Positions 325 through 21,548 are shown, numbered from the stretch's first letter. The stretch is 25,850 nucleotides of DNA from an uncultured bacterium (GCA_964483805.1 CAZADH010000034.1:1-25850), one strand, 5' to 3'. A program made the numbers and translations. The notes: a model not told the origin generated them from the letters alone.

Positions 325-671
325 GCGTCTCCCCCTTTTTATCGGGCGCGAGGCCCGAAAACGAGTGCCGGGTCCCTTGCGACTGCGCCATCGTGGCCGC
401 AAGGGCCCACTTCGCGCATCCGTGCGCTTGGGTCGTGAGCAGCCCAACGTTCACTTTGCCCATCCCGGGCGGGCGTCACCGAGCGAAAATACAAGTAATC
501 ACATTCCTCATCGGCGCAAACATGCATTCGGTTTAGTCTTGCTTCATGTTACCACGGGATCGCGGTGACCATAGGGGAGCGTGGCAGGCTGGGACTGTCG
601 TGGCAACAAGCAACGGCGCCCCACCGAAGACTCACGGATGGGGCGCCGGGTAGGCGGTCGAAACGGACTGT

Positions 672-1043
672 TTATGCGGCCGGGGCGAGGGCGTGCTCCT
701 GGGGCGTCGCCGGTGTCGGCACCGGGGTGGCGGGTGTTGCCTGCGCGGTCGTCGTTGCGCCGGCGATTGGCGTCGTGGCGCGGACCACGGCCTGCCAACC
801 GGTAACACAGGTCTCGAGATGCCACTGGTCATCTTTCGACGGGGCCTTGCCGGCCTCGATGGCGGTGGCGGCGTTGTGGCACATCCAACACGTGCGGTTC
901 TGCGCCCGAAAAGCGGCGGCCCACTCTTGCGGTGTGGTTGGCAGAAGTTGCCCGGTGATGGGGCGAGGGGTGACCTGGCTGGTGGGGTCCGACATGGAGT
1001 GTGCCTCGCTGATTGGGAGTGGCATCAGGAAAAGTGGGGCCAT
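672..1043 (-). CDS. Hypothetical small protein with a single CWMCH (CxxCH / CxxC) motif and a Thr/Ala/Pro-rich C-terminal tail. The start is uncertain; an internal ATG at 995 with a GAGG upstream is an alternative.
   Basis: This is the only ORF in the 330-1300 gap whose third codon positions are almost all G/C, as in the bona fide genes here. It contains the motif RTCWMCHNAATAIEAGK. No N-terminal hydrophobic signal is visible, so c-type heme attachment is not assured. Confidence 0.3.
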   Translation of the reverse strand: MAPLFLMPLPISEAHSMSDPTSQVTPRPITGQLLPTTPQEWAAAFRAQNRTCWMCHNAATAIEAGKAPSKDDQWHLETCVTGWQAVVRATTPIAGATTTAQATPATPVPTPATPQEHALAPAA

Positions 1044-1243
1044 TAAAACAACGGTATGACGGTCAGCGCAAGCGACGAGCCGAAGTCGAAATCAGCCACT
1101 GGACCGGTTTCTTGTCAAAGGATGGGGGACACTGTACCGTCGGTGAGCCAATGAGAGACTTTTTCGTGTACCCCGCGTTTTGGCGGGCTTTCGGTGGCGA
1201 TCAGGTGGACGCACCCGCACCTGCAATGCGCGGGGCGGCCGAT

Positions 1244-1275
1244 GAAAAACCCCCGATGCACGAATGCATCGGGGG
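1244..1275 (-). terminator. Rho-independent terminator of the hppA-like gene
   Basis: A perfect 11-bp inverted repeat, cccccgatgca (1250-1260) / tgcatcggggg (1265-1275), has a 4-nt loop. On the minus-strand transcript it is followed by UUUUUC (complement of gaaaaa, 1244-1249). It lies 27 nt downstream of the hppA stop at 1302. Confidence 0.6.
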
Positions 1276-1301
1276 TCGACGAATACTGCTATGTCTGGGG
1301 C

Positions 1302-4300
1302 TTAGAACGGGTCGGCGTCAACCTTGGGACTGGCGGAACCCGAACCGGAACCGTTGGCCGGGGCTGCCGCACTGCCGCTACCGGCCGGTGTTGCGCTGCC
1401 TGTGCCGGATCCAGAGCCGGTCGGCGTCACGGCGCTGCCGGACCCTGCCGCTGCAGCGCTACCCGAGCCGGAACCGCCAGCAGCGGGGGGCGTCGTGGGG
1501 GCAACCGGAGCCGTGGCGCCCGAGGCCGAGGCACTGCCGGATCCGCTGCCGGTCGCAGTTGTCTGGTCGGAACCCGTTGCGGCTGGAGCGGCGGCGCTGC
1601 CGGAGCCCGCAGCGGATGCGCTTCCTGAACCGCTGCCCGCGGCCGCAGCACTGCCACTGCCGGCGGCGGCCGGACTGCCGGAACCGCTGCCTGCAGCAGG
1701 TTTGGGTGTATCGTCAAAGCCACCGAACCCGCCGTCATCGGCGGGTTTGCCGCTGGCTTTGCCGGAACCGCTGCCTGCAGCGGGTTTGGGCGTATCGTCG
1801 AAACCACCGAACCCACCGTCATCGGCGGGCTTGCCGCTGGCTTTACCGGAACCGCTGCCGGCAGCGGGTTTCGGGGTGTCATCGAAACCGCCGAAGCCAC
1901 CGTCACCGCCGGAAGTCGGCTTCACACCAGGCTTCGCCGAAGCATCGCCACTGGCCTTGCCGGAACCGCTGCCGGCGGCCGGCGGCTCGACGGTAGCCGA
2001 GCCGATTGCCTCGGTGCCACTGCCGGTGTCGCCGAGCAATGCTTCCTCGTCGTCGGGAATCAGACCCTGCTCGGGGGCGAGCAACGGATCGTCTTCTTCC
2101 ATGTTGTCGTAATACTCATCGCCACCGGTGCGCGCAGTACCGCTGGCAGCGCCGACGTCACCGGGCAGGAAGATGCCGGCCTGGCGACCGCTGGTGTCGT
2201 ACTTGTTCTTGAACTCGTCGCGCAGGCGGGTGTTGGCAGGGCTGAAGCCGAGCAAGCCCTGGATGCTGGGCGAGTAGGAAACGATCAGGCCGGCCACGAC
2301 GATCGAGACCAGGCTCATGACCTTGATGAGTGAGGTCAATGCCGGTCCGGATGCGTCTTTGAGCGAATTGCCGACGCTGCCCGACAGCACGACCGCTTTG
2401 TGACTATCGGACCCCTTACCGCCGCACTGGCCGCCTTCGATGTACTTCTTGGCGTTGTCCCAGGTGCCGCCGGTGTTGGTCAGGAAGCCGGCGAGAACGA
2501 AACCGGTGGCGAGTGCGCCTGCGAGCAGGCCCATAACGCCGTTGGCGCCGAGGAGGAGACCGACGAGGATGGGTGCTGCGAGAGCGGTGACAATCGGGAG
2601 GACCATCTCGTTCTGGACACCCGCGGTTACAGCGGTGATGCACTGGGCATGGTTGGCCTTGGCATTCGCATCGCCCTTGAGGAGCCCGGGGTTGTCGTGG
2701 AACTGGCGCTTGACCTCGGCAGCGAGCGCTTTCGCCGCGAGACCCACGGCTTTGAGCATCATCGATGCGAAGAGCGATGCCAGCATGGCACCCAACAACA
2801 GGCCACCCAACACCTGCGGGTTCAGCAGCGTGACGTCGAAGTAGCTCATGAAGTCGCCGACGACGGCCTTGTCGAGAGCCACGGCCTGGGTCGAGCTTGG
2901 GAACACGCACTTGTCGAAGCGGTCTCCGGTGGAATCGGCGTAGCGAATGAGTCCGGAGCGAATCGACTCGACGTAGGCCGCGAGCAGAGCGACGGCCGAG
3001 AGGGTGGCCGCAACGACGGCGTAACCGCGGCTCGACGCGGCGGTCGTGGCACCAAAAGCCAGGGCGTCGGTGCGTTTGCGCACGTCGGGGCCGGCCTGGG
3101 TCATTTCGGCACAGCGTGCTGCATTGTCGGCGATCGGGCCGTAGGCACCGGCCGTCAGGACCAACGACAACGGGGCCAGCATGCCGACTGCGGCCAGAGC
3201 GATGCCATAGAGGCCACGCGCAAAGGCGAAGTTGATCGGACCGGAGGCTGGATCATAGCCACCGGCGAACAGGAAGGCCAGAACCATACCGACGATCACC
3301 ACGATCAGCGTGGGGCCGACCGTGGAGCCCAAACCGATGGTCAGACCGGCGAGCAACACGGTATTGGGCCCGCTCGAAGCCTGCGTGGCAAGCTCCTGGG
3401 TGGGCGGGAACTCGGTCGAGGTGTAGTAATCGGTCGACCAGCCAATGACGATTCCGACCAGCAGGCCGACGCCGATCGATCCGCACAACTTGAAGTAATC
3501 GGGCATCATCGCATAGACGGCAAAGACGGCGATGGCCGCGAGCACTGCAGAAGAGATCAGGAGGCTGCGGTTGACGGTGCCGGCGAGGTCTTTCTGGGTC
3601 GCGTCTTCGGTGGCCCGAATCGACAGGACACCGAACAACGACGCGATGACGCCGGCGCCGGCAAGCACCAAAGGCAGGATGATGGCAGCAATCTGGAGGC
3701 TTTCGATGGAGGCCTTCTGGGCGGCGTCTTTGATTGCAGCGGTCTCAGGGCGGAACGCCGTGGCGCCGAGCGCGGCGGCAGCCAGGATCGCACCGAGATA
3801 CGACTCGTAGAGGTCGGTGCCGAGGGCCGACACGTCACTGACGTTGTTGCCCAGTTGAGCGGCGACCACGGCCGGATTCCGCGGATCGTCTTGCGGCGCG
3901 CCGGCTTCGTTCTTGGCAACCAGTTCGGCGCCCAGTTCGGTGGCCTTGGCAAACACGCCGCCGCCGGCACGGGCGAACAGGGCGTGAATACTGGCACCGA
4001 TCCCGAAGGTGAGCAGAATCGAGGTCAGGTCGACGTAGTCGCGAATGCCGAACCGGACCATGTAATTGCTATTGGGCCCGAATACGCCGGCATCGTTGGT
4101 CTGCGACATGGCCCAAGACAGAATCTTGAACCAGATCGAAATGTCGGCGAGCGCGAGACCCGCGGCGAGAAAGCCGATGACGGCAGCGCCGCGAACGGCC
4201 ATGTTCATGCCCGCCGCGAGCGATTGCTTGGCAGCCTCGGCGGTGCGCGCATTGGCATGGGCAGAAGCGATCAACCCCGCGTAGCCGGCGATCAACGAAA

Positions 4301-4589
4301 ACAGGCCGCCGAACAGAAACGCGATCGGGGTCCAGGCGCTCTGAGCCTTCAGTACATAGGCCAGGAAGGCAAAGAACAGGAAGCCGAAGAAGTAGCACAT
4401 ACCCACGGCGCGGTTCTGCTGCGAGAGGTACGCGACAGCACCGTCGTAGGTAGCCGTGGCGATGCTCTGGGCCTTGTCGTTGCCGGCCCCGGCCCGGATC
4501 ATCGCATCATAGAACCAGTAGGCAATGGCCAGGCCCAAGACGGCGCCAATAGGTGCCAACCAAAAAAGGGTTTCAGGCGATACATTCAC
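1302..4589 (-). CDS. hppA: Membrane-integral pyrophosphatase homolog (H+-translocating PPase / HppA family) with an atypical ~325-aa low-complexity C-terminal extension
   Basis: The 1095-aa ORF uses a GTG start, with GAGGAGG 12 nt upstream. M-PPase signatures are present: DDPRNPA, GPIADNA, DYYTS, GGTWDNAKKYIEGG, HKAVV...LKDASGP and about 16 hydrophobic helices. Canonical M-PPases end about 15 aa after the last TM, whereas here a ~325-aa G/S/A/T/P-rich tail follows. Several conserved acidic residues appear substituted (see findings). Confidence 0.85.
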   Translation of the reverse strand: MNVSPETLFWLAPIGAVLGLAIAYWFYDAMIRAGAGNDKAQSIATATYDGAVAYLSQQNRAVGMCYFFGFLFFAFLAYVLKAQSAWTPIAFLFGGLFSLIAGYAGLIASAHANARTAEAAKQSLAAGMNMAVRGAAVIGFLAAGLALADISIWFKILSWAMSQTNDAGVFGPNSNYMVRFGIRDYVDLTSILLTFGIGASIHALFARAGGGVFAKATELGAELVAKNEAGAPQDDPRNPAVVAAQLGNNVSDVSALGTDLYESYLGAILAAAALGATAFRPETAAIKDAAQKASIESLQIAAIILPLVLAGAGVIASLFGVLSIRATEDATQKDLAGTVNRSLLISSAVLAAIAVFAVYAMMPDYFKLCGSIGVGLLVGIVIGWSTDYYTSTEFPPTQELATQASSGPNTVLLAGLTIGLGSTVGPTLIVVIVGMVLAFLFAGGYDPASGPINFAFARGLYGIALAAVGMLAPLSLVLTAGAYGPIADNAARCAEMTQAGPDVRKRTDALAFGATTAASSRGYAVVAATLSAVALLAAYVESIRSGLIRYADSTGDRFDKCVFPSSTQAVALDKAVVGDFMSYFDVTLLNPQVLGGLLLGAMLASLFASMMLKAVGLAAKALAAEVKRQFHDNPGLLKGDANAKANHAQCITAVTAGVQNEMVLPIVTALAAPILVGLLLGANGVMGLLAGALATGFVLAGFLTNTGGTWDNAKKYIEGGQCGGKGSDSHKAVVLSGSVGNSLKDASGPALTSLIKVMSLVSIVVAGLIVSYSPSIQGLLGFSPANTRLRDEFKNKYDTSGRQAGIFLPGDVGAASGTARTGGDEYYDNMEEDDPLLAPEQGLIPDDEEALLGDTGSGTEAIGSATVEPPAAGSGSGKASGDASAKPGVKPTSGGDGGFGGFDDTPKPAAGSGSGKASGKPADDGGFGGFDDTPKPAAGSGSGKASGKPADDGGFGGFDDTPKPAAGSGSGSPAAAGSGSAAAAGSGSGSASAAGSGSAAAPAATGSDQTTATGSGSGSASASGATAPVAPTTPPAAGGSGSGSAAAAGSGSAVTPTGSGSGTGSATPAGSGSAAAPANGSGSGSASPKVDADPF
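1684..1935. repeat. Three tandem 84-bp (28-aa) direct repeats inside the hppA 3' region
   Basis: Unit ccgctgcctgcagc(a/g)ggtttggg(t/c)gtatcgtc(a/g)aa(g/a)ccaccgaacc... recurs at about 1684, 1768 and 1852. It encodes GGFGGFDDTPKPAAGSGSGKASGKPADD three times. The first two copies are near-identical. Confidence 0.8.
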
Positions 4590-4694
4590 GATGAACCGAG
4601 ACCTCCTCGCGCGCTAGAGATACCATCCGCACCGGATTCTGCACGAACGGCTGCGGAAACCGCTCGCTTTGTGCAACTACTCCGAGAACCTGAA

Positions 4695-4724
4695 AATATA
4701 GTGGTAATGCAAAGATACTGTCAA
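4695..4724 (-). promoter_or_regulatory. Sigma70-type promoter for hppA (-35 TTGACA, 18-nt spacer, -10 TATATT)
   Basis: On the minus strand, TTGACA is the complement of 4719-4724 and TATATT the complement of 4695-4700. The spacing is exactly 18 nt. It sits in the AT-richer divergent intergenic region 4590-4787 and predicts a 5'UTR of about 95 nt. Confidence 0.45.
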
Positions 4725-4787
4725 TGGCGTTGGCGCTGTTTTCACAATCTAAATGTGGCGGGTTGGTGAGCGTGGTATCATCGGCGT

Positions 4788-15700: not shown

Positions 15701-18700
15701 GTTCCTCTCATCGGCTTCGCGCTGCAACACCTGATGTTGTGCCATGTCGGCACTTGCGAGAGACCGCCACACCACGATTGCTGGTGTCGTTAACAGCAGG
15801 AATCCGGCGAGAAACAGCGCAAAGCGGAAAGTCGCAGTATGGTGTCTTGCTACTGGGGTCGTCGGTTGAGTTGTGAAGCCAGCGTCCCGCGCGTTGGCTC
15901 GCGGAGCGCCCGGTTCGGGTGCGCGGTGGGGAGAAGCCGGTTCGGCGTTACCGGGCATCGACCATCGGGTGGTCGTATTGCTGGTGTATGTCTCCTGTGA
16001 TGCTCTTGCCCCGGGTTCGGTAGTGCCTGCAATATCCGGCGCAACGGCCAGGGCCGCCATTGGTGCCGCGATGGTCGTGAGGTCGGCGGGGTCTACTCCC
16101 GCAAGATCGGCAACGGTCCGGCTGATCACGAGAGGCCACGACGGACACTGCTTGCTGGCCGCTTCCAAACGGGTGGCTTCCTTCACGGGTTCACCAACCA
16201 TCGTGAAGTCGAGTCGCGAGGTGGGGCTGCCGATGCCGCCGACCACGAGGGAGCCGGCCGCGATACCGATGCCGATCGCGTAGGGAAACTCCCGGCGGGC
16301 GGTGCGCGCGGCGTTGATGCGGGCCAGTTCGTGCAGCATCGCATGCCCCGCGCGGCAGGCGGCACGCGCTGTCTGCTCGAGCCCGGCATCCGGCCCGGAC
16401 GGTTCGAAAATGGCTTGAATGGCGTCGCCGATGAATTTGTCGACGCGACCGCCATGCGCCGAAATGATTGCATCCATGCGCGTGTAGTGCTGGTTCAACA
16501 ACGCGGTCATGACCGCGGGGGGATGGTGTTCGCAATGGGTGGTGAAGTCACGAATGTCTGAGACGAGGACGACGGCCTCTAGTCGATGGCCGGCCCCGAG
16601 ATGGGCCAGATCACGCGTCGAGGCGATGGCGTCCAGAGCTTTGCCCGAGACCAGCGCGGCTAGGCGCCGGCGGGTGCGCAGACCGGCGATCATTTCGGTG
16701 AAGGCGCACGTCAGTTGACCCAGTTCGTCGGGGCGGGCCAGATCGATCGATTGGTCGAGATCACCGACGGCGACGGCGTCGAGTGCCGCTTTGAGTTTAG
16801 CGATGGGCGTAACGATGCGGGTGCCCATCCAGAGTCCGAGCACGATCATGATGCCCAGGCTGACGACCAGAGACAGCCAGAGGTGACGTGCCATCTGGGC
16901 GAGATCCTGAGTGACCGGCGTCAATGGTGTTCCCATGGCGAGGATCATGTCGTTCATTTCGCGTGATGGCTGCGCGATCGAGACATACTGCCGGGCCTCG
17001 TCGACCACGAACACCGAGCCCTGCCGCACCGACGCGGTATTGGCGGTTGCATCGAGCAGGTGGCGGGTGAGGCGGGTTCCGCCGCTGACCGGTTCGAGTT
17101 GTCCGCGAACCCGGCGAAATGCGACAAAGTCGAGATCCGGCTGAGTGGCGCGGAGATGCCCGCTGGTGGTTTGCATGGCCGAGCGATCGAGATCGTTCTG
17201 CTGCCAAACCACGACCAGGCTGAACCTGGGGCGCCCGGCCACGGTGATGAAGTCGTGCAACTTGACGGTTTGGGAACGGCCGACCCGCATCAGTTCAGGC
17301 ATGCCGCAGGTGGCGAGGAGCGACGAAATTGCATCGGAACCGCAACTTTCCTCGTAGGCAGCGAGCAGGGCACGATCCTCTGTCGACAGCGGATCTGGAG
17401 GCAGACGCACGGTGGGATCGTGGTTGAGCATCATGTGTCGCAAGGTGCGGGTCATCGAACTGCGGTAGAAACGAACCATGGGTCGGACGTCGTCGAACTG
17501 GATCTCATTGGAACCGGTGGCGATGTACTGTCCGTTGCTGTCGTAGAGACAGATTGCCGCGACCGAGAGGGCCGGTGAAGCGGTGCGAAAATGCCAGGTG
17601 AGTCGATCGCACACCGACGCTCGTTGACGGTGCGGGCCAATCTGCAAAGCCGCCAACAACTCGGGATCGGCCAACGTGCGGCCAAATGCTGCCAGATAGT
17701 TTTCCTGCAGTTGATTGCGCCGGTGCTCGATTGCGCCGATCTCGGCCGTCAAGCGTGCTTGCATGTTGGCCAGCAACGTGGCTTCGTGTTCCTCCAGGGT
17801 GACGCGGGCCGCGATGAGTCCCAGGCCGATCGGGAGTGCGGAGGCGACGACGAACAAGCCGGCAAAACGCCATGACAGGCCGATGCGCATAGGTCTGCCG
17901 GCGACGGCATGGCGTGAAGCCAGGAGGAACAACAACAGCGCCGCAAGCACGTCGAGAGCGATGATCCCCGGTGCGAGTGGTTGTTGCGGTATGATGGGTA
18001 GCGCAATCAACGCGAGGTGACGTGCATCAGGAATGTACCACGTAAATACGCGATATTGACCGAGTCGCTTTCCCCAGGGAACCCCATCGCGTTCAATCTG
18101 CTCGAAGGGAAGACCATCCTTGCGGTTGGCCAGTTGCCGGCGAAAATCGGCCAGCCAGCGTCGGAACGTGGGCGAGCGGGCGAACGCGCTGGCCAGGACG
18201 TCGCAGCGCGGCCGTCCGACGAGTTGCACGAACCCGGTGAGCGGAAGTCCTGCGGGATTGCCTGGTCGGCCGGCCAAACCCGCGGTGCCGTGCGTGCTCG
18301 AACCAGACAGGCCGGCGGCAAGGCTGTCGGCCAGTTGCCGTCGGGCCAGACGCAAGCCGACGACCGTCGTCGTTGCGTTGTCTGGGGTCAGGAGAAAGTA
18401 GCCGCCGAGCGGACGTCCGGCGCGATCGCGCCAGACATCCCAGATCAACCAGTGAAAGCGGTTGGTGTAGACGATGCGTGTCGGCACGCCGCATTGCGTG
18501 CGGGCCAGCAGTTCGATGGGGATCTGGCCGCCGAAAAGGGAATCGATCAGTTTCTGTCCGCGCTGCCGTTCCGCACCGGTCGCCCGTCGCTCGGACTCGA
18601 GCACCAGATGGGCGAATGCGGTGGCCATGCTGCGTCGGCCCGTGCGGCTGCGCTCGGGTCCCAGGAGCAGTTCCGGGGCAACCGAGCCGGCAAGCCGATC

Positions 18701-19144
18701 TTGCGGCAGGCGGAACACCCACAACTCATGCGCCGGAAACGGGGGCTGCAGGACGGCCCGGGCCACGGCAGGGAGCAGGTCGGGACGTGCTTCGCCGGCG
18801 GTGTCGGTCGGTGTCCCCGTGGCCTGGTTGTGGTCCGCTGGCGGGTTGATGAACCCCAGCGGTTCACCCAGTTTCTGGTGGAGTTGGCCATGAAACCGCA
18901 CCAGTTGTCGGTGGAAACGCCAGGTCTCCCCCAGAGCGGCCAGCAACTGTCGGGCCTGTTCCTCCTGGGCAACGCCGGCCCGTCGATACGCCCGCTCGTT
19001 CTTGACCTTCCAGCCGATATTGATGACCAGTAACGGCACGACGGCCATCAACATGGGTAATATTACGGTAATGCTTCGTTTGGGGACCTGTGGGCGTCTG
19101 GTGGTTGGTGGTTGTGAACCCGCGGGAAAAACGCCTGGCACCAC
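12779..19144 (-). CDS. Giant (2121 aa) membrane receptor-type class III adenylate/guanylate cyclase made of two tandem modules. Each module is TM, periplasmic domain, 2 TM, periplasmic domain, TM, HAMP, cyclase homology domain.
   Basis: Two HAMP-like segments are present: PIAKLKAALDAVAVGDLDQSIDLARPDELGQLTCAFTEMIAGL and PIEALGEGMRAIDAARYDHRLPEERADELGDLCRTFNQMARGL. There are two cyclase homology domains. CHD1 (about 16060-16600) carries VVLVSDIRDFT ... GGRVDKFIGDAIQAIF ... GEPVKEATRLE. CHD2 (about 12817-13372) carries LTVLFLGVPGFA ... GGDVDKMIGDKILAVF ... GDTVNTAARVE. Eight predicted TM helices are arranged 1+2+1 per module, with a Pro/Ala/Thr-rich inter-module linker. The annotated GTG start lies 4 nt after the MMPL stop; an internal ATG about 90 nt downstream (MLMAVVPLLV) is an alternative. 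Confidence 0.8.
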   Translation of the reverse strand: MVPGVFPAGSQPPTTRRPQVPKRSITVILPMLMAVVPLLVINIGWKVKNERAYRRAGVAQEEQARQLLAALGETWRFHRQLVRFHGQLHQKLGEPLGFINPPADHNQATGTPTDTAGEARPDLLPAVARAVLQPPFPAHELWVFRLPQDRLAGSVAPELLLGPERSRTGRRSMATAFAHLVLESERRATGAERQRGQKLIDSLFGGQIPIELLARTQCGVPTRIVYTNRFHWLIWDVWRDRAGRPLGGYFLLTPDNATTTVVGLRLARRQLADSLAAGLSGSSTHGTAGLAGRPGNPAGLPLTGFVQLVGRPRCDVLASAFARSPTFRRWLADFRRQLANRKDGLPFEQIERDGVPWGKRLGQYRVFTWYIPDARHLALIALPIIPQQPLAPGIIALDVLAALLLFLLASRHAVAGRPMRIGLSWRFAGLFVVASALPIGLGLIAARVTLEEHEATLLANMQARLTAEIGAIEHRRNQLQENYLAAFGRTLADPELLAALQIGPHRQRASVCDRLTWHFRTASPALSVAAICLYDSNGQYIATGSNEIQFDDVRPMVRFYRSSMTRTLRHMMLNHDPTVRLPPDPLSTEDRALLAAYEESCGSDAISSLLATCGMPELMRVGRSQTVKLHDFITVAGRPRFSLVVVWQQNDLDRSAMQTTSGHLRATQPDLDFVAFRRVRGQLEPVSGGTRLTRHLLDATANTASVRQGSVFVVDEARQYVSIAQPSREMNDMILAMGTPLTPVTQDLAQMARHLWLSLVVSLGIMIVLGLWMGTRIVTPIAKLKAALDAVAVGDLDQSIDLARPDELGQLTCAFTEMIAGLRTRRRLAALVSGKALDAIASTRDLAHLGAGHRLEAVVLVSDIRDFTTHCEHHPPAVMTALLNQHYTRMDAIISAHGGRVDKFIGDAIQAIFEPSGPDAGLEQTARAACRAGHAMLHELARINAARTARREFPYAIGIGIAAGSLVVGGIGSPTSRLDFTMVGEPVKEATRLEAASKQCPSWPLVISRTVADLAGVDPADLTTIAAPMAALAVAPDIAGTTEPGARASQETYTSNTTTRWSMPGNAEPASPHRAPEPGAPRANARDAGFTTQPTTPVARHHTATFRFALFLAGFLLLTTPAIVVWRSLASADMAQHQVLQREADERNRAALRLVKAQDFAESLIDQRMREFAEEIARRVASSGPSLTREKLGLTGSETLLAGDRSNSAIRPVAVAVVRPRHDRWAAPAEVCMVGVASADARDLGRLVAYLADWSANVLPSWEVSETERSLQSFVNTQLGMNLPVRDLTARNRGHCRAGFLSGRPVWWFWQTLAITDPQAVTTTILSQAAQEGVTPRIAPILTQIPKVIGAAMIAIPREPITARRKAHMLMANYDDGDTALVLLSPDGNERYPSPQWGHGALARWLTTADFANPPSGWVIASDQVTLGNPYRVIAATRRAEPQTVFGLSPGTARALNLAALGGTLLAAVILWILTVYFDAGIAVSLSRQLWFGFLLAALLPLATTFALAATLIQEHRDTTVREVRTAMRNKIDDAHRRKTAYRAWLVENLFNLARSPKMLAVARRVHQQAMASGKNASAANDRLLATFDALAHHVYRRPIVKISFSSSVLVGPHGFRRSYRYAGMRGHVGNSDQLAESLSFIGGSRLLLLNPDLPHRDDARTLTETTKQELTTSAGLDIMRSIYGPDLFFHLLAGWHEPMRMVSSVGMTFIAPILSPSEQKPEYLFIWIFAVSMPDWHAILRVANAQSGTHPFFTSRLDYLGEPPTPRGSVALPTIGAVAQLTALINAPVSLRISEVNTRYLAESVLDPHGQQLVTVGISPEIPIDEASRRLAQTFNLLLSLALLATVLLAMSASRDLLAPIEALGEGMRAIDAARYDHRLPEERADELGDLCRTFNQMARGLEERELLGRMVSASARKAVLSDADADRSRTGESRDLTVLFLGVPGFAHICATADPVTLIANLNRQAGVICSEIERAGGDVDKMIGDKILAVFHHLNSSPAAATQGALDAGQRLLAAAARGDMPYPVALGIHAGPVLIGLLGAGDRQDHTVIGDTVNTAARVEALAEDLHQEPRLIMTSTACDLLGAAAPPSRPLAVTAVKGKRRAVQLFQPIGTVRGDA

Positions 19145-19148
19145 CGTA

Positions 19149-21548
19149 TCAGTCCTTGGGTTCTGTCGGTGACGCGGGCGGAATGGGGATCGGGCGGAAC
19201 AACTGCAGTGCCACCGGCGTGATCAGGAGCTCGCAAACCAGGTCGACGGCAACGCCGATTGAAATGAAGATGCCGAAATACCGCGTCGGCGAAAATGTTG
19301 ACAACGTCAATACAACAAAGCCGGCGCAGAGGGTCAGCATGGTCAGGAAGGTGGCCCTCCCCTTGTGGACCATGGTGCGCACCAGTGCCTCGTGTTCGTT
19401 GCCGTCTTTCTTCAACTCGTGCTTGAACTGGTGAATGATGTGGATGGTGTCGTCGACGGCCAGACCGATGGCAATCGAGGCAATCATGCCCGTGGCCGTG
19501 CTGAACGTGGTGCCGGTCAGTCCCATAATGCCGTACGTGTAGATGACCGGGATCACATTGGGGAAGATCGCGGTCAGTCCGACCTTCCAGGAGCCGAAGA
19601 ATATGGCCATCAGCACGGTGATGATCGCCAGCGACATCGAGAAACTGGTGATCTCGTTGTAGGCAATGACCTGGGCCACGTCGGCCCACATGGCCGCGCG
19701 TCCGGTGATCGTCGCTTTGATCGGCACGCCGGCGAATTCTCGGTTGATGTGGCCGCGGATCACCGCGAAGGCTTCGACCATCTCGCGGGACGTGCGATCG
19801 CGCATGCGCAGCGACACATGGGTCGTCATGGCGTTCGAGGCGATGAACTCGCCAAGCATGCCGCCGCTGGGAAACGCCGTAAACGTGCTGATCTCCAGGG
19901 GGCGCGCGCCGAAATTGAAGGTCTCGGAGGCGAAGCGGCGCCCGCCCGAGGCCACCGCCAGCTCGAGATCGTTCGCATCGTCGGCGAGTTCCTCGGGGTC
20001 GGACGCCGGCGTCGGCGAGTAGAAGTTCAGATAGTCGTGAATCTCCTGTTCGGTGGCCGGAATGTGATTGGGTTCGCCGCTGAACATGCGGTCGAAATCC
20101 TGCACCAGGTCAACATACGACAGCGACTTGTCGAGGATGCTGATGCTTGCCAGGCTGTCTTGCAAGCGCCGCACCCGATGCACCATGTCGACCTGCGTGA
20201 ACCGGGGGCCGCTGCTCTCTAGCAGAATCTCGACGGGGACGATGCCGCACAGGTTCTTTTCGACGTAGCGGTTGGCGTCCTGGATGGCATGATCGGCCGG
20301 CAGGAAACGAATGAGGCTGGTCTCGATCGGCAGAATCGAGATGCCATACAGAGAAATGGCCAGGAAAGCGAGAATCAGGCACCACACCTTGCGTGGATTG
20401 CCCAGAAGAAAGCGGGCGAGCCGCTCGAGATCGAGTTCGAGCCAGCGGATCGACCCGACATGCTTGCCGGTGCAGCGCGTGAGCATGATCAGCGCCGGCA
20501 CCAGGGTCAGCGCCAACAGCATGGCGAATACGGTGCCGAGTGCAGAATAGGCGCCAAACTGCGCGATCGCATCGACCGACTGGTAGATCAACGAACCGAA
20601 GCCGATCATGGTGGCCACGCCGGAGATCAAGAACGGGCGCAGCACATGCCGCATCGATTGGTGCAACAAGGCGGGGTCGAAGGTGTCGGTGTGACGCGTG
20701 CTTTCGAAATACTCTGTCAATACATGAATGACAAAGGTCAAGGCCACCGACAACACCATCGGTGGCAGGATCGAAGTGACGAAGTTGACCGAGTTGCCCA
20801 TCGCCATCATCGTTCCCTTGGTCCAGATCAGGGCGCAGATGATCGCCAACAAAGGCGCGAACAGACCGAAAGACGAGCGATAGAGCAGCCACAACACTCC
20901 GGCCATCAACAACACGGTCAATGGTGAGAACAACTTCTGATCGCGTCGGGTCATCTCGATGATCAGCCGGGTGATCTCGGGCACGCCGGTGAGTTGCGTG
21001 CCCAGCGGCATATTGCGGTCGAGGACTGCGCTCACCTCGGCGATCGAATCGGCGACCAGATCCCCCGTTTCCTGCTTCAGGCGGATGACCAGACCACCCA
21101 CCTTCCAGTCGGATGAAATGATGAGCCGGTCCATCGTCGTGGTCTTCTTCATGTTCTCGACGTAACGCTCGAGTTGGCGTTCGTCCTCGAGAAACTGCTC
21201 GAGCTGTTGCCATGTAGAAACGCCGAGATTCACCCGCAGGGCGGTGATTGGCGACAGAACTGTCTGCACATTGTGCAGTTCGAGCAGGGCCTGCTCGGTG
21301 GCGAACAACCGTCGCACCAGGGGGCGGTCGATCTTGTCGACCGGAAACGCCGCGAGCAGGATGCGGTCGTTGCCAAATGTGTTGAGAAACCGGTAATAGG
21401 CGGCGAGCGCTTCGTCGTGCAATACATTGTCTTCGAGCTTGTTGTCGATGCGCTCGAGGCGGGCGAACGGGGCCAGTTTCGCCGTGATCAACAGAACAAC
21501 GATCACGACCAGCCAGGCGAGACGACGGTTGCCGAACAATGTGTGCAT
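19149..21548 (-). CDS. MMPL / RND-superfamily exporter (COG1033-like, HpnN-type; 12 TM with two periplasmic loops)
   Basis: The 799-aa protein has two TM bundles separated by large loops. SSD/RND-like segments are LFSPLTVLLMAGVLWLLYRSSFGLFAPLLAIICALIW and GMIASIAIGLAVDDTIHIIHQF (the G..VDD.IH motif). Confidence 0.8.
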   Translation of the reverse strand: MHTLFGNRRLAWLVVIVVLLITAKLAPFARLERIDNKLEDNVLHDEALAAYYRFLNTFGNDRILLAAFPVDKIDRPLVRRLFATEQALLELHNVQTVLSPITALRVNLGVSTWQQLEQFLEDERQLERYVENMKKTTTMDRLIISSDWKVGGLVIRLKQETGDLVADSIAEVSAVLDRNMPLGTQLTGVPEITRLIIEMTRRDQKLFSPLTVLLMAGVLWLLYRSSFGLFAPLLAIICALIWTKGTMMAMGNSVNFVTSILPPMVLSVALTFVIHVLTEYFESTRHTDTFDPALLHQSMRHVLRPFLISGVATMIGFGSLIYQSVDAIAQFGAYSALGTVFAMLLALTLVPALIMLTRCTGKHVGSIRWLELDLERLARFLLGNPRKVWCLILAFLAISLYGISILPIETSLIRFLPADHAIQDANRYVEKNLCGIVPVEILLESSGPRFTQVDMVHRVRRLQDSLASISILDKSLSYVDLVQDFDRMFSGEPNHIPATEQEIHDYLNFYSPTPASDPEELADDANDLELAVASGGRRFASETFNFGARPLEISTFTAFPSGGMLGEFIASNAMTTHVSLRMRDRTSREMVEAFAVIRGHINREFAGVPIKATITGRAAMWADVAQVIAYNEITSFSMSLAIITVLMAIFFGSWKVGLTAIFPNVIPVIYTYGIMGLTGTTFSTATGMIASIAIGLAVDDTIHIIHQFKHELKKDGNEHEALVRTMVHKGRATFLTMLTLCAGFVVLTLSTFSPTRYFGIFISIGVAVDLVCELLITPVALQLFRPIPIPPASPTEPKD

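Follow-up and report, generated by a model that had tools for sequence, protein, structure and literature searches.

In a 25,850-nucleotide stretch of DNA from an uncultured bacterium (GCA_964483805.1, CAZADH010000034.1:1-25850), hereafter the window, in whose numbering all coordinates are given, we analysed a gene on the minus strand (the query) that encodes a degenerate homologue of the membrane-bound pyrophosphatases (M-PPases). We found that 9 of the 21 positions of the hydrolytic centre are changed and 12 are kept. The explanation that we favour, with chances that we put at about even, is that the query may be a selectively maintained, catalytically remodelled, hydrolysis-deficient and neofunctionalised homologue, a description that covers scenarios both of retained binding and of decay. 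Few primary ion pumps are regarded as so uniformly conserved as the M-PPases, in which the catalytic Asp and Lys are 98-99.9% invariant, and we know of no description of non-catalytic members; a literature search combining M-PPase with pseudoenzyme, inactive-homolog and non-catalytic terms found no relevant paper.

The remodelled catalytic centre

The gene and its membrane domain occupy the following positions:

1302..4589, minus strand: the whole query gene, an M-PPase-like protein with a C-terminal tail (open reading frame (ORF) list; 1,095 amino acids)
2250..4589, minus strand: the M-PPase-like 16-helix domain, residues 1-780 (Pfam PF03030, AlphaFold2, Foldseek)

In the ORF list, the gene starts with GTG at 4589 and stops at 1302-1304. 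The N-terminus of the protein lines up with those of its relatives in a MAFFT alignment, and an ORF of identical length (1,095 amino acids) is found in a second strain. Pfam PF03030 (H_PPase) matches residues 17-765 over profile positions 1-645 of 645 (E 3e-176, 588 bits against a cut-off of 29.7). A preceding reading of the DNA, made by a model from the sequence alone (the sequence-only reading), had placed the feature at 2280-4589, a span that covers the M-PPase-like domain; the gene itself runs on to 1302 with a clade-defining tail of 315 residues.

When searched with phmmer against PDB sequences, the query aligned to the Thermotoga maritima Na+-PPase (TmPPase; 4av3, E 1e-100) and the Vigna radiata H+-PPase (VrPPase; 4a01, E 2e-91) with maximal posterior probability across the motif regions. 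MAFFT alignments with 17-30 relatives gave the same motif register, and the motif coordinates were confirmed by translation. The sequence-only reading had claimed that catalytic Asp residues are substituted, reading the motifs as AQLGNNVSD, HKAVVLSGSVGNSLKD and GATTAA. These readings proved exact in both the phmmer and the MAFFT alignments; against 4A01, 4AV3 and a broad M-PPase set the register holds, and Asp is not restored at the changed positions. That the changes are an artefact of misregistered alignment or of a sequencing or assembly error carries negligible probability: nothing was found in its favour, and it is refuted by the agreement of phmmer, MAFFT and Foldseek on the register and by an independent assembly (SRR32844787) that encodes the same residues. 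The catalytic motifs, with residue roles, residue lists and Ballesteros-Weinstein numbering taken from the review PMC6882861, lie as follows:

3912..3947, minus strand: KATELGAELVAK, residues 215-226, with D5.61 and D5.65 both replaced by Glu (KATELGAE) and K5.58 and K5.69 kept (alignments, translation)
3834..3860, minus strand: AQLGNNVSD, residues 244-252, in place of DNVGDNVGD, with D6.35 replaced by Ala, D6.39 by Asn and D6.43 kept (alignments, translation)
3801..3815, minus strand: DLYES, residues 259-263, with D6.50, E6.53 and S6.54 kept, of Na+-PPase type (alignment; roles from PMC6882861)
3024..3155, minus strand: the segment of transmembrane helices (TM) 11-12, residues 479-522, TAGAYGPIADNAARCAEM...TDAL-AFGATTAASSRG (alignments, translation)
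2310..2483, minus strand: the TM15-16 segment, residues 703-760 (alignments, translation)

The nine changes in the hydrolytic centre are D5.61E, D5.65E, E5.76Q (within PQDD), D6.35A, D6.39N, the deletion of D12.39 (the Asp of TDALD), N12.43A (the TM12 Asn, N492 in T. maritima and N534 in V. radiata), D16.31G and D16.35N. Counted over the complete hydrolytic centre as listed in PMC6882861, 8 of 16 residues are changed (to Glu, Glu, Gln, Ala, Asn, Gly and Asn, together with Asn to Ala). In the coupling funnel, D11.50G and K12.50R are changed and R5.50 and D6.50 are kept, and near the K+ and Na+ sites we observed G12.49S and N16.46T. Along TM11-12, D11.50 has thus become Gly, D11.57 is kept, a new Arg stands at G492, D12.39 is deleted, N12.43 is Ala, A12.46 is kept, G12.49 is Ser and K12.50 is Arg; GNTTAA reads GATTAA within nucleotides 3024-3053. 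In TM16, the motif HKAxVxGDTVGDPFKD corresponds to HKAVVLSGSVGNSLKD (nucleotides 2355-2402), with D16.31 replaced by Gly and D16.35 by Asn and with K16.38 and D16.39 kept, and LTSLIKVMS carries Thr for N16.46 and keeps K16.50.

The sequence-only reading had counted four acidic ligands as lost. The loss is real, but the count was too low: six pocket acids (five Asp and E5.76) are neutralised by substitution, a seventh is deleted, and two further Asp are replaced by Glu. The changes that it had not listed are D5.61E, D5.65E, E5.76Q, D11.50G, the D12.39 deletion, K12.50R, G12.49S and N16.46T. Five of the substitutions are conservative or isosteric (Asp to Glu twice, Asp to Asn twice, Glu to Gln), the remainder being to Gly or Ala or by deletion, and inspection of the alignment revealed no replacement acidic residues that had migrated near the motifs.

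The query keeps the nucleophile-activating pair D6.43/D16.39, the acids D5.77, D6.26, D11.57, D12.36 and D15.61, and the basic residues K5.58, K5.69, K15.64, K15.65, K16.38 and R5.50. In TM15, WDNAKKYIE is intact (D15.61, K15.64, K15.65), and DDPRNPA and GPIADNA are likewise unchanged; alignment and translation thus bore out the claim of the sequence-only reading that these three motifs and DLYES are retained. The ion gate is also preserved (S5.43, D6.50, E6.53, S6.54, K16.50), its residue list being intact except for N16.46T. A charge asymmetry results: 7 of 15 invariant Asp columns are changed, none of 14 invariant Lys/Arg columns loses its charge (only Lys to Arg and Arg to Lys occur), and G492R adds a new basic residue beside D11.57.

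These gate residues assign the scaffold to a type. The markers of K+-dependent Na+-PPases are present (A12.46 as A517, E6.53 as E262, S6.54 as S263, G6.57 as G266, K16.50 as K756); at 16.46, the Na+ site, where Asp or Asn is expected, the query has T752 and 14 of 14 canonical members of its clade have Asn. Judged by these markers, the scaffold is of the K+-dependent Na+-PPase type, and the H+-PPase framing of the sequence-only reading does not hold (A12.46, E6.53, S6.54, G6.57).

An AlphaFold2 model built from an 18-sequence alignment gave a predicted local distance difference test score (pLDDT) of ~80 for residues 1-800 and below 35 for residues 813-1095. In a Foldseek search against the PDB, all significant matches of this model were M-PPases, with target-normalised TM-scores (TMt) of 0.85-0.92 (8b21, 5lzq, 4a01, 8b37). 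In the model, an intact 16-helix M-PPase scaffold is followed by a disordered tail. The T. maritima K+-dependent Na+-PPase (4AV3, 5LZQ, 8B21) shares with the query the 16-helix fold (TMt 0.87-0.89) and A12.46, E6.53, S6.54, K16.50, K5.58, K15.64, K16.38, D6.43/D16.39, D11.57 and D15.61. The query differs from it, at ~30% identity, in the 9 of 21 hydrolytic-centre residues that are changed or deleted, in D11.50G, K12.50R and D/N16.46T, and in additional loops and the 315-residue periplasmic tail. The V. radiata H+-PPase (4A01) resembles the query in fold (TMt 0.85-0.87) and in the framework of catalytic motifs; its gate Glu lies at 6.57 (H+ type) whereas that of the query lies at 6.53, and in acidic residues it differs from the query as TmPPase does.

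The coupling-funnel network R5.50, D6.50, D11.50 and K12.50 is 98-99.7% conserved in the M-PPase family. Single substitutions of the hydrolytic-centre Asp residues reportedly abolish activity (Nakanishi et al. 2001, Schultz & Baltscheffsky 2003, Hirono et al. 2007); a literature search for mutagenesis of individual hydrolytic-centre Asp residues found nothing usable. In the canonical hydrolytic centre, the carboxylates hold the Mg2+ ions through which pyrophosphate (PPi) binds (PMC6882861), and mutation of K12.50 in VrPPase is cited in a passage of PMC5150537 as abolishing both hydrolysis and pumping.

To gauge how unusual these changes are, we aligned 199 M-PPases (119 other database matches and 80 genes of GTDB genomes spread over many phyla) and thinned them to 86 non-redundant canonical sequences of less than 80% identity, which yielded 187 columns with at least 97% conservation. 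The query deviates at 55 of these columns and the other sequences at a median of 0 (mean 1.3), so that its excess of changes is far beyond chance. Of 125 diverse 50%-identity cluster representatives in which 18 key catalytic and gate positions are covered, 97 have the full set; in the query, 8 of the 18 differ. GC pressure (62% GC in the query against 33-55% in its relatives) was considered as a cause of this divergence and accepted as a contributor at most: 18 of the 55 changes are toward Gly, Ala, Arg or Pro and 11 away from them, and Asp to Asn runs contrary to such pressure.

Selection, relatives and the history of the locus

A second copy of the gene, from the independent sequencing run SRR32844787 (locus L002), encodes 1,095 amino acids that are 99% identical to the query and include all of its substitutions. 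Between the alleles there are 115 synonymous and 12 non-synonymous differences, and the ratio of non-synonymous to synonymous divergence (dN/dS) is 0.034 for the whole gene, with 0.037 for the PPase-like domain and 0.030 for the tail. The divergently transcribed neighbour gene has a synonymous divergence (dS) of 0.107 and a dN/dS of 0.033; purifying selection therefore acts on the query as strongly as on its neighbour, and both a pseudogene and an assembly error are thereby ruled out. Five amino-acid differences between the strains fall in the domain, two of them at motif positions that had been invariant (S251N, and G737S at 16.31), and this variation hints at relaxed constraint at those sites. 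The tail (1305-2249) also has about three times the dS of the domain (0.29 against 0.095), with dN/dS equally low in both; the excess may come from mutation or conversion driven by the repeats, or from a constraint on codons in the membrane domain.

The signals for expression lie upstream of the start codon:

4602..4608, minus strand: Shine-Dalgarno-like GAGGAGG, 12 nucleotides before the GTG (read from the sequence)
4695..4724, minus strand: sigma-70-like promoter TTGACA-18-TATATT (11 of 12 positions, a consensus match only), ~105 nucleotides upstream of the start

The promoter candidate sits in a divergent intergenic region of 198 nucleotides that is 96% identical in the second strain. A gene decaying under relaxed selection, on its way to becoming a pseudogene, would account for the many invariant positions changed throughout the domain and for the occurrence of two of the five domain differences between strains in degenerate motifs. 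It is nevertheless very improbable and effectively refuted by a dN/dS that, at 0.034 over 127 differences, matches the value for the neighbour, and it sits poorly with a 1,095-codon ORF intact in two strains, a Shine-Dalgarno sequence with a near-consensus promoter, and a confident AlphaFold2 model over the domain.

The phosphoglycerate kinase (PGK) encoded in the window has its best named matches, at 70-74% identity, in Candidatus Riflebacteria, Ozemobacteraceae and Ozemobacter sibiricus, and by this affinity the host organism is a Riflebacterium. The nearest relatives of the query form 14 clusters (P0002-P0011 and P0299-P0302), some of them named Candidatus Rifleibacterium or Riflebacteria. 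They are distinguished by a C-terminal extension of 150-450 residues, the motif (D/E)DPL(L/M)GTEDIILP.D(E/D), GF(D/E) repeats and a GGFDx(F/L) end. The corresponding parts of the query are:

2031..2099, minus strand: EEDDPLLAPEQGLIPDDEEALLG, the clade-defining linear motif in the post-TM16 linker, residues 831-853 (conserved in 18 of 18 long-tail proteins, the degenerate ones included)
1676..1912, minus strand: an 84-bp tandem repeat in 2.8 copies, encoding three 28-residue copies of (D/G)DGGFGGFDDTPKPAAGSGSGKASGKPA (TRF score 362)
1305..1675, minus strand: a Gly/Ser/Ala/Pro-rich disordered tail end, ending KVDADPF (AlphaFold2 pLDDT <35; no Pfam match)

The query thus has an extension of more than 150 residues after TM16 (315 in all, without a Pfam match), the motif in the version DPLL...IP..DEE, and three GFD repeats where its relatives have GF(D/E) repeats; its C-terminus reads DADPF instead of the GGFDx(F/L) of nearly all long-tail proteins. 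The canonical Riflebacteria and Ozemobacteraceae long-tail M-PPases (P0302, P0002-P0011), annotated as sodium-translocating pyrophosphatases, share with it the post-TM16 linker, DPLL..ILP..D(E/D) and the GF(D/E) repeats, and differ from it in keeping 100% of the key catalytic residues; every key residue is kept in 14 of 14 canonical long-tail relatives. All phylogeny was by neighbour-joining (NJ), and in the NJ tree the query groups with this clade (bootstrap 77). Taken with the shared tail, this grouping makes the query a member of a Riflebacteria-specific long-tail clade, in which the tail is long, acidic and disordered. Identities are 73-80% among the canonical long-tail proteins and ~52% between them and the query.

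M-PPases have 16 helices with both termini non-cytoplasmic, as in TmPPase and VrPPase. The tail was read as periplasmic on this ground, with support from P0157, an M-PPase that carries a C-terminal fusion to two CarboxypepD_reg domains and an OmpA peptidoglycan-binding domain. The conserved C-terminal aromatic or hydrophobic residue of the long-tail proteins resembles those of PDZ-protease ligands or of the beta-signal of outer-membrane proteins, a likeness that we offer as speculation.

An exhaustive HMMER search over 1.84 billion cluster representatives yielded three further long-tail proteins (P0168, P0170 and P0173), previously undescribed and 30-34% identical to the query, which share with it the clade, the tail motif and acidic losses in the same motifs. 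They lack 12-14 of the 18 key residues, whereas the query lacks 8; the nucleophile Asp D6.43 is gone from all three, and each is also without several from the set of clamp Lys residues, D6.50 and K16.50. All three are encoded by intact ORFs of 1023-1066 amino acids in DNA of 33-42% GC, and the tail motif DPLLGTEDIILP is nearly unchanged in them. D5.65E is common to the query, P0168 and P0170, and D5.61E to the query and P0168; for two of the three degenerate proteins, the deviating sites overlap with those of the query above expectation (p ~1e-6 and 2e-8). In a scan of GTDB genomes, five query-specific peptides gave no close relative of the query among the 80 loci kept, and these loci did not reveal an M-PPase co-resident with the query.

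Full-length degenerate M-PPases were also observed outside the long-tail clade (P0160, P0166, P0284, P0264, P0267, P0234, P0256, P0239, P0259 and P0286), lacking 2-14 of the 18 key residues. Several share a TM12 Asn to Lys/Arg change together with K15.64R, and P0256 has D16.35N in common with the query; some could be chimeras or frameshifted genes. Their existence suggests that the phenomenon may be wider than the clade.

Gene order was used to ask whether the degenerate proteins are orthologs or paralogs of the canonical ones. In the Riflebacteria metagenome-assembled genome GCA_015233155.1, the canonical P0302 gene is followed by those for EPSP synthase, cmk-S1, GAPDH and PGK. The degenerate P0173 gene is followed by cmk-S1, PGK and TIM, and the degenerate P0170 gene (GCA_015232575.1) by a 225-residue secreted protein and EPSP synthase, the secreted protein being 58% identical to the product of the gene downstream of the canonical P0007. 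In two cases (P0170 and P0173), a strongly degenerate gene is therefore found at the ancestral canonical locus. In the window, ~17 kb separate the query from gap-pgk-tpi, which is encoded on the same strand; as weaker evidence, this position is consistent with a rearranged version of that locus. Together, the placement of P0170 and P0173 and the proximity of the query to gap-pgk-tpi point to in-situ divergence of an ortholog. The canonical NCBI-sourced proteins that were looked up came from assemblies other than those of the degenerate copies.

In the NJ domain tree, the four degenerate proteins cluster (bootstrap 78) as sister to all canonical long-tail proteins. We rejected the interpretation of this cluster as a single old paralog and read it as long-branch attraction because linker and indel signatures, synteny and PGK distances contradict the grouping. 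In the linker and motif region, the query and P0170 are nearest to P0005 and P0302, P0168 to P0300, and P0173 to P0011 and P0301, with whose subclade P0173 shares a 9-residue deletion; the PGK of the window is 72-73% identical to that of the Ozemobacteraceae group and 63% identical to that of the P0173 genome. From these comparisons, we read the decay of the catalytic centre in the clade as probably recurrent and independent, and an old duplication with differential loss may be an alternative. The sequence-only reading had proposed a functionally diverged paralog; divergence stands, given the remodelled centre, the accelerated branch and the dN/dS of 0.034, but 'paralog' finds no support with P0170 and P0173 in the canonical locus.

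The same evidence bears on the idea that the query is a silent subunit pairing with a canonical M-PPase encoded elsewhere and hard-wiring the asymmetry of what is otherwise a homodimer. As obligate dimers, M-PPases show negative cooperativity and half-of-sites behaviour (PMC6882861), and the sister position of the degenerate proteins in the NJ tree (bootstrap 78) is as expected for an old paralog. Such pairing is nonetheless improbable: no second M-PPase gene was found in the 25.8-kb window, P0170 and P0173 sit in the ancestral canonical locus, and, by their linker and indel signatures, the degenerate proteins each go with a different canonical subclade. The query also carries changes in the dimer interface (Glu to Ala at 13.59, Arg to Lys at 13.62 and Phe to Ser at 13.40), an interface that varies among canonical members too.

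Possible functions of the query protein

By sequence definition, that of an enzyme fold without conserved catalytic residues that is maintained by selection, the query is a pseudoenzyme; the pseudoenzymes of published reviews (PMC10211241, PMC5106787) are likewise folds under selection without conserved catalytic residues. The suggestion of the sequence-only reading that the protein is a pseudo-enzyme or has an altered function is thus reasonable for a remodelled centre under strong purifying selection. We predict that the canonical cage of 4-5 Mg2+ ions cannot assemble in the query, where about half of the carboxylate and amide ligands are replaced and G492R is added in the cytoplasmic pocket. 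The query is very unlikely to be an efficient Mg2PPi-hydrolysing pump because these ligands are missing, K12.50 is replaced, and no canonical member tolerates even one such change.

A pump that is still energised by PPi and moves Na+, with a rebuilt metal cage and altered kinetics or an altered metal or substrate preference, is a rather unlikely alternative that deserves weighing. In such a protein, Mg2+ or another metal would still be coordinated by the Glu residues at 5.61 and 5.65 and the Asn residues at 6.39 and 16.35, and fewer activating metals would be needed. The idea gains from the retention of D6.43/D16.39, D11.57, D15.61, D5.77 and all phosphate-binding Lys residues, from the intact ion gate, from substitutions that are mostly conservative, and from a domain dN/dS of 0.037, which is typical of a functioning enzyme. 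It is opposed by the observation that not one such change occurs in 14 canonical clade members or 97 canonical cluster representatives, that D16.31, D6.35, N12.43, D11.50 and D12.39 have been replaced non-conservatively by Gly or Ala or deleted, and that K12.50, reported as essential in a passage of PMC5150537, is Arg. The variation of motif positions 251 and 737 between strains, which suggests relaxed constraint, points the same way. Model scores fall on both sides: the query passes one of 13 NCBIfam M-PPase equivalog models (NF001960, 600.9 against a cut-off of 546), which speaks for a working pump, and stays below the cut-off of the 12 others, which speaks against it; its top-scoring model, NF001954, gives 687.8 against a cut-off of 894. 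Since one cut-off is passed, annotation pipelines would name the query 'sodium-translocating pyrophosphatase'.

The retention under selection of the Lys/Arg clamp, the Asp pair and the Na+-type gate suggests that the pocket of a hydrolysis-deficient query still binds a phospho-anion. PPi or another such ligand would bind more directly, with at most one or two metal ions, and its binding may couple to a conformational change at the cation gate, so that the protein could serve as a ligand-gated path for Na+, as a sensor, or as a device that is slow or uncoupled. According to the binding-change model, it is the binding of substrate, and not its hydrolysis, that is required for ions to move (PMC6882861). 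Alternatively, the query may serve a hydrolysis-independent role of the scaffold and the periplasmic tail, which would also be what keeps P0168, P0170 and P0173; it would then be the mildest case of repeated catalytic decay, possibly a transitional one. Joined into a single model, which we advance tentatively and at less than an even chance, long-tail M-PPases would have a second, hydrolysis-independent function of scaffold and tail, and their catalytic centre would for that reason have decayed at least three times independently. The query would be a transitional, non-hydrolysing, phospho-anion-gated cation conduit or sensor that has lost the metal cage while selection still maintains its phosphate clamp, nucleophile pair and Na+ gate.

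Several points weigh against the interpretation of the query as a neofunctionalised, hydrolysis-deficient homologue. Five of its changes are conservative, Glu and Asn can still ligate Mg2+, and the nucleophile pair is intact, so that residual or altered catalysis is possible. The selective retention of basic residues is marginal (~p 0.03, from small numbers) and could reflect early random decay, and strong purifying selection indicates that the protein is used, not which use it has. The host genome is known from a single 30.7-kb contig.

Neighbouring genes and implications for the family

Immediately downstream of long-tail genes lies the gene of a conserved protein of 222-225 amino acids, which has a signal-peptide-like hydrophobic N-terminus and lacks a Pfam match; the gene was seen at 13336-14004 of locus L001 (after the canonical P0007) and, in duplicate, at 13205-13882 and 13954-15357 of locus L084 (after P0170); it is absent from the window. 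This secreted protein is a candidate partner of the periplasmic tail. In P0151, an insertion of ~75 residues was seen in the cytoplasmic loop between WDNAKKWIE and GKSSDNHK.

Downstream of the query, an ORF of 164 amino acids (565-1059, plus strand; 5657-6139 in L002) is 96% conserved in the second strain and lies in a stretch of 97.5% identity between the strains, a conservation that exceeds that of synonymous sites in the flanking genes. We did not call it a gene, as it displays no coding-type constraint in any frame (best dN/dS 0.34-0.43 over 12 differences) and no Pfam match; an Rfam scan of the window returned zero matches. Antisense ORFs of 789, 327 and 262 amino acids overlap the query (2400-4769 and 1013-2112, plus strand) and were rejected as genes, such ORFs being typical of DNA of 62-68% GC.

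Elsewhere in the window, the following genes were observed:

8575..11388, plus strand: an ORF of 937 amino acids with Pfam MVP_shoulder (E 1.9e-26) and Vault_3, major-vault-protein-like and unusual in a bacterium
11456..12490, plus strand: a PD-(D/E)XK family transposase-like gene (PDDEXK_2, E 2.8e-45), between the vault-like and cyclase genes
12779..19144, minus strand: an ORF of 2121 amino acids with two HAMP domains and a C-terminal adenylate/guanylate cyclase domain
19149..21548, minus strand: an MMPL/RND-type transporter gene, next to the cyclase ORF and on the same strand

The transposase-like gene is possibly linked to the rearrangement that separated the query from gap-pgk-tpi.

In summary, the long-tail clade offers a natural graded series from canonical through half-degenerate (the query) to fully degenerate proteins, with the scaffold and the tail common to all. 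Such a series would show a use of the M-PPase fold beyond PPi-driven pumping, and it would provide natural variants with which to test the binding-change idea that the binding of a ligand, and not its hydrolysis, moves the ion. It would also flag a systematic annotation error, in which degenerate proteins are automatically named 'sodium-translocating pyrophosphatase', and would bear on metabolic reconstructions in which Riflebacteria are assumed to have a PPi-driven sodium motive force. If the model of a second, hydrolysis-independent function is true, the M-PPase family would have in the query its first natural pseudo-pump.

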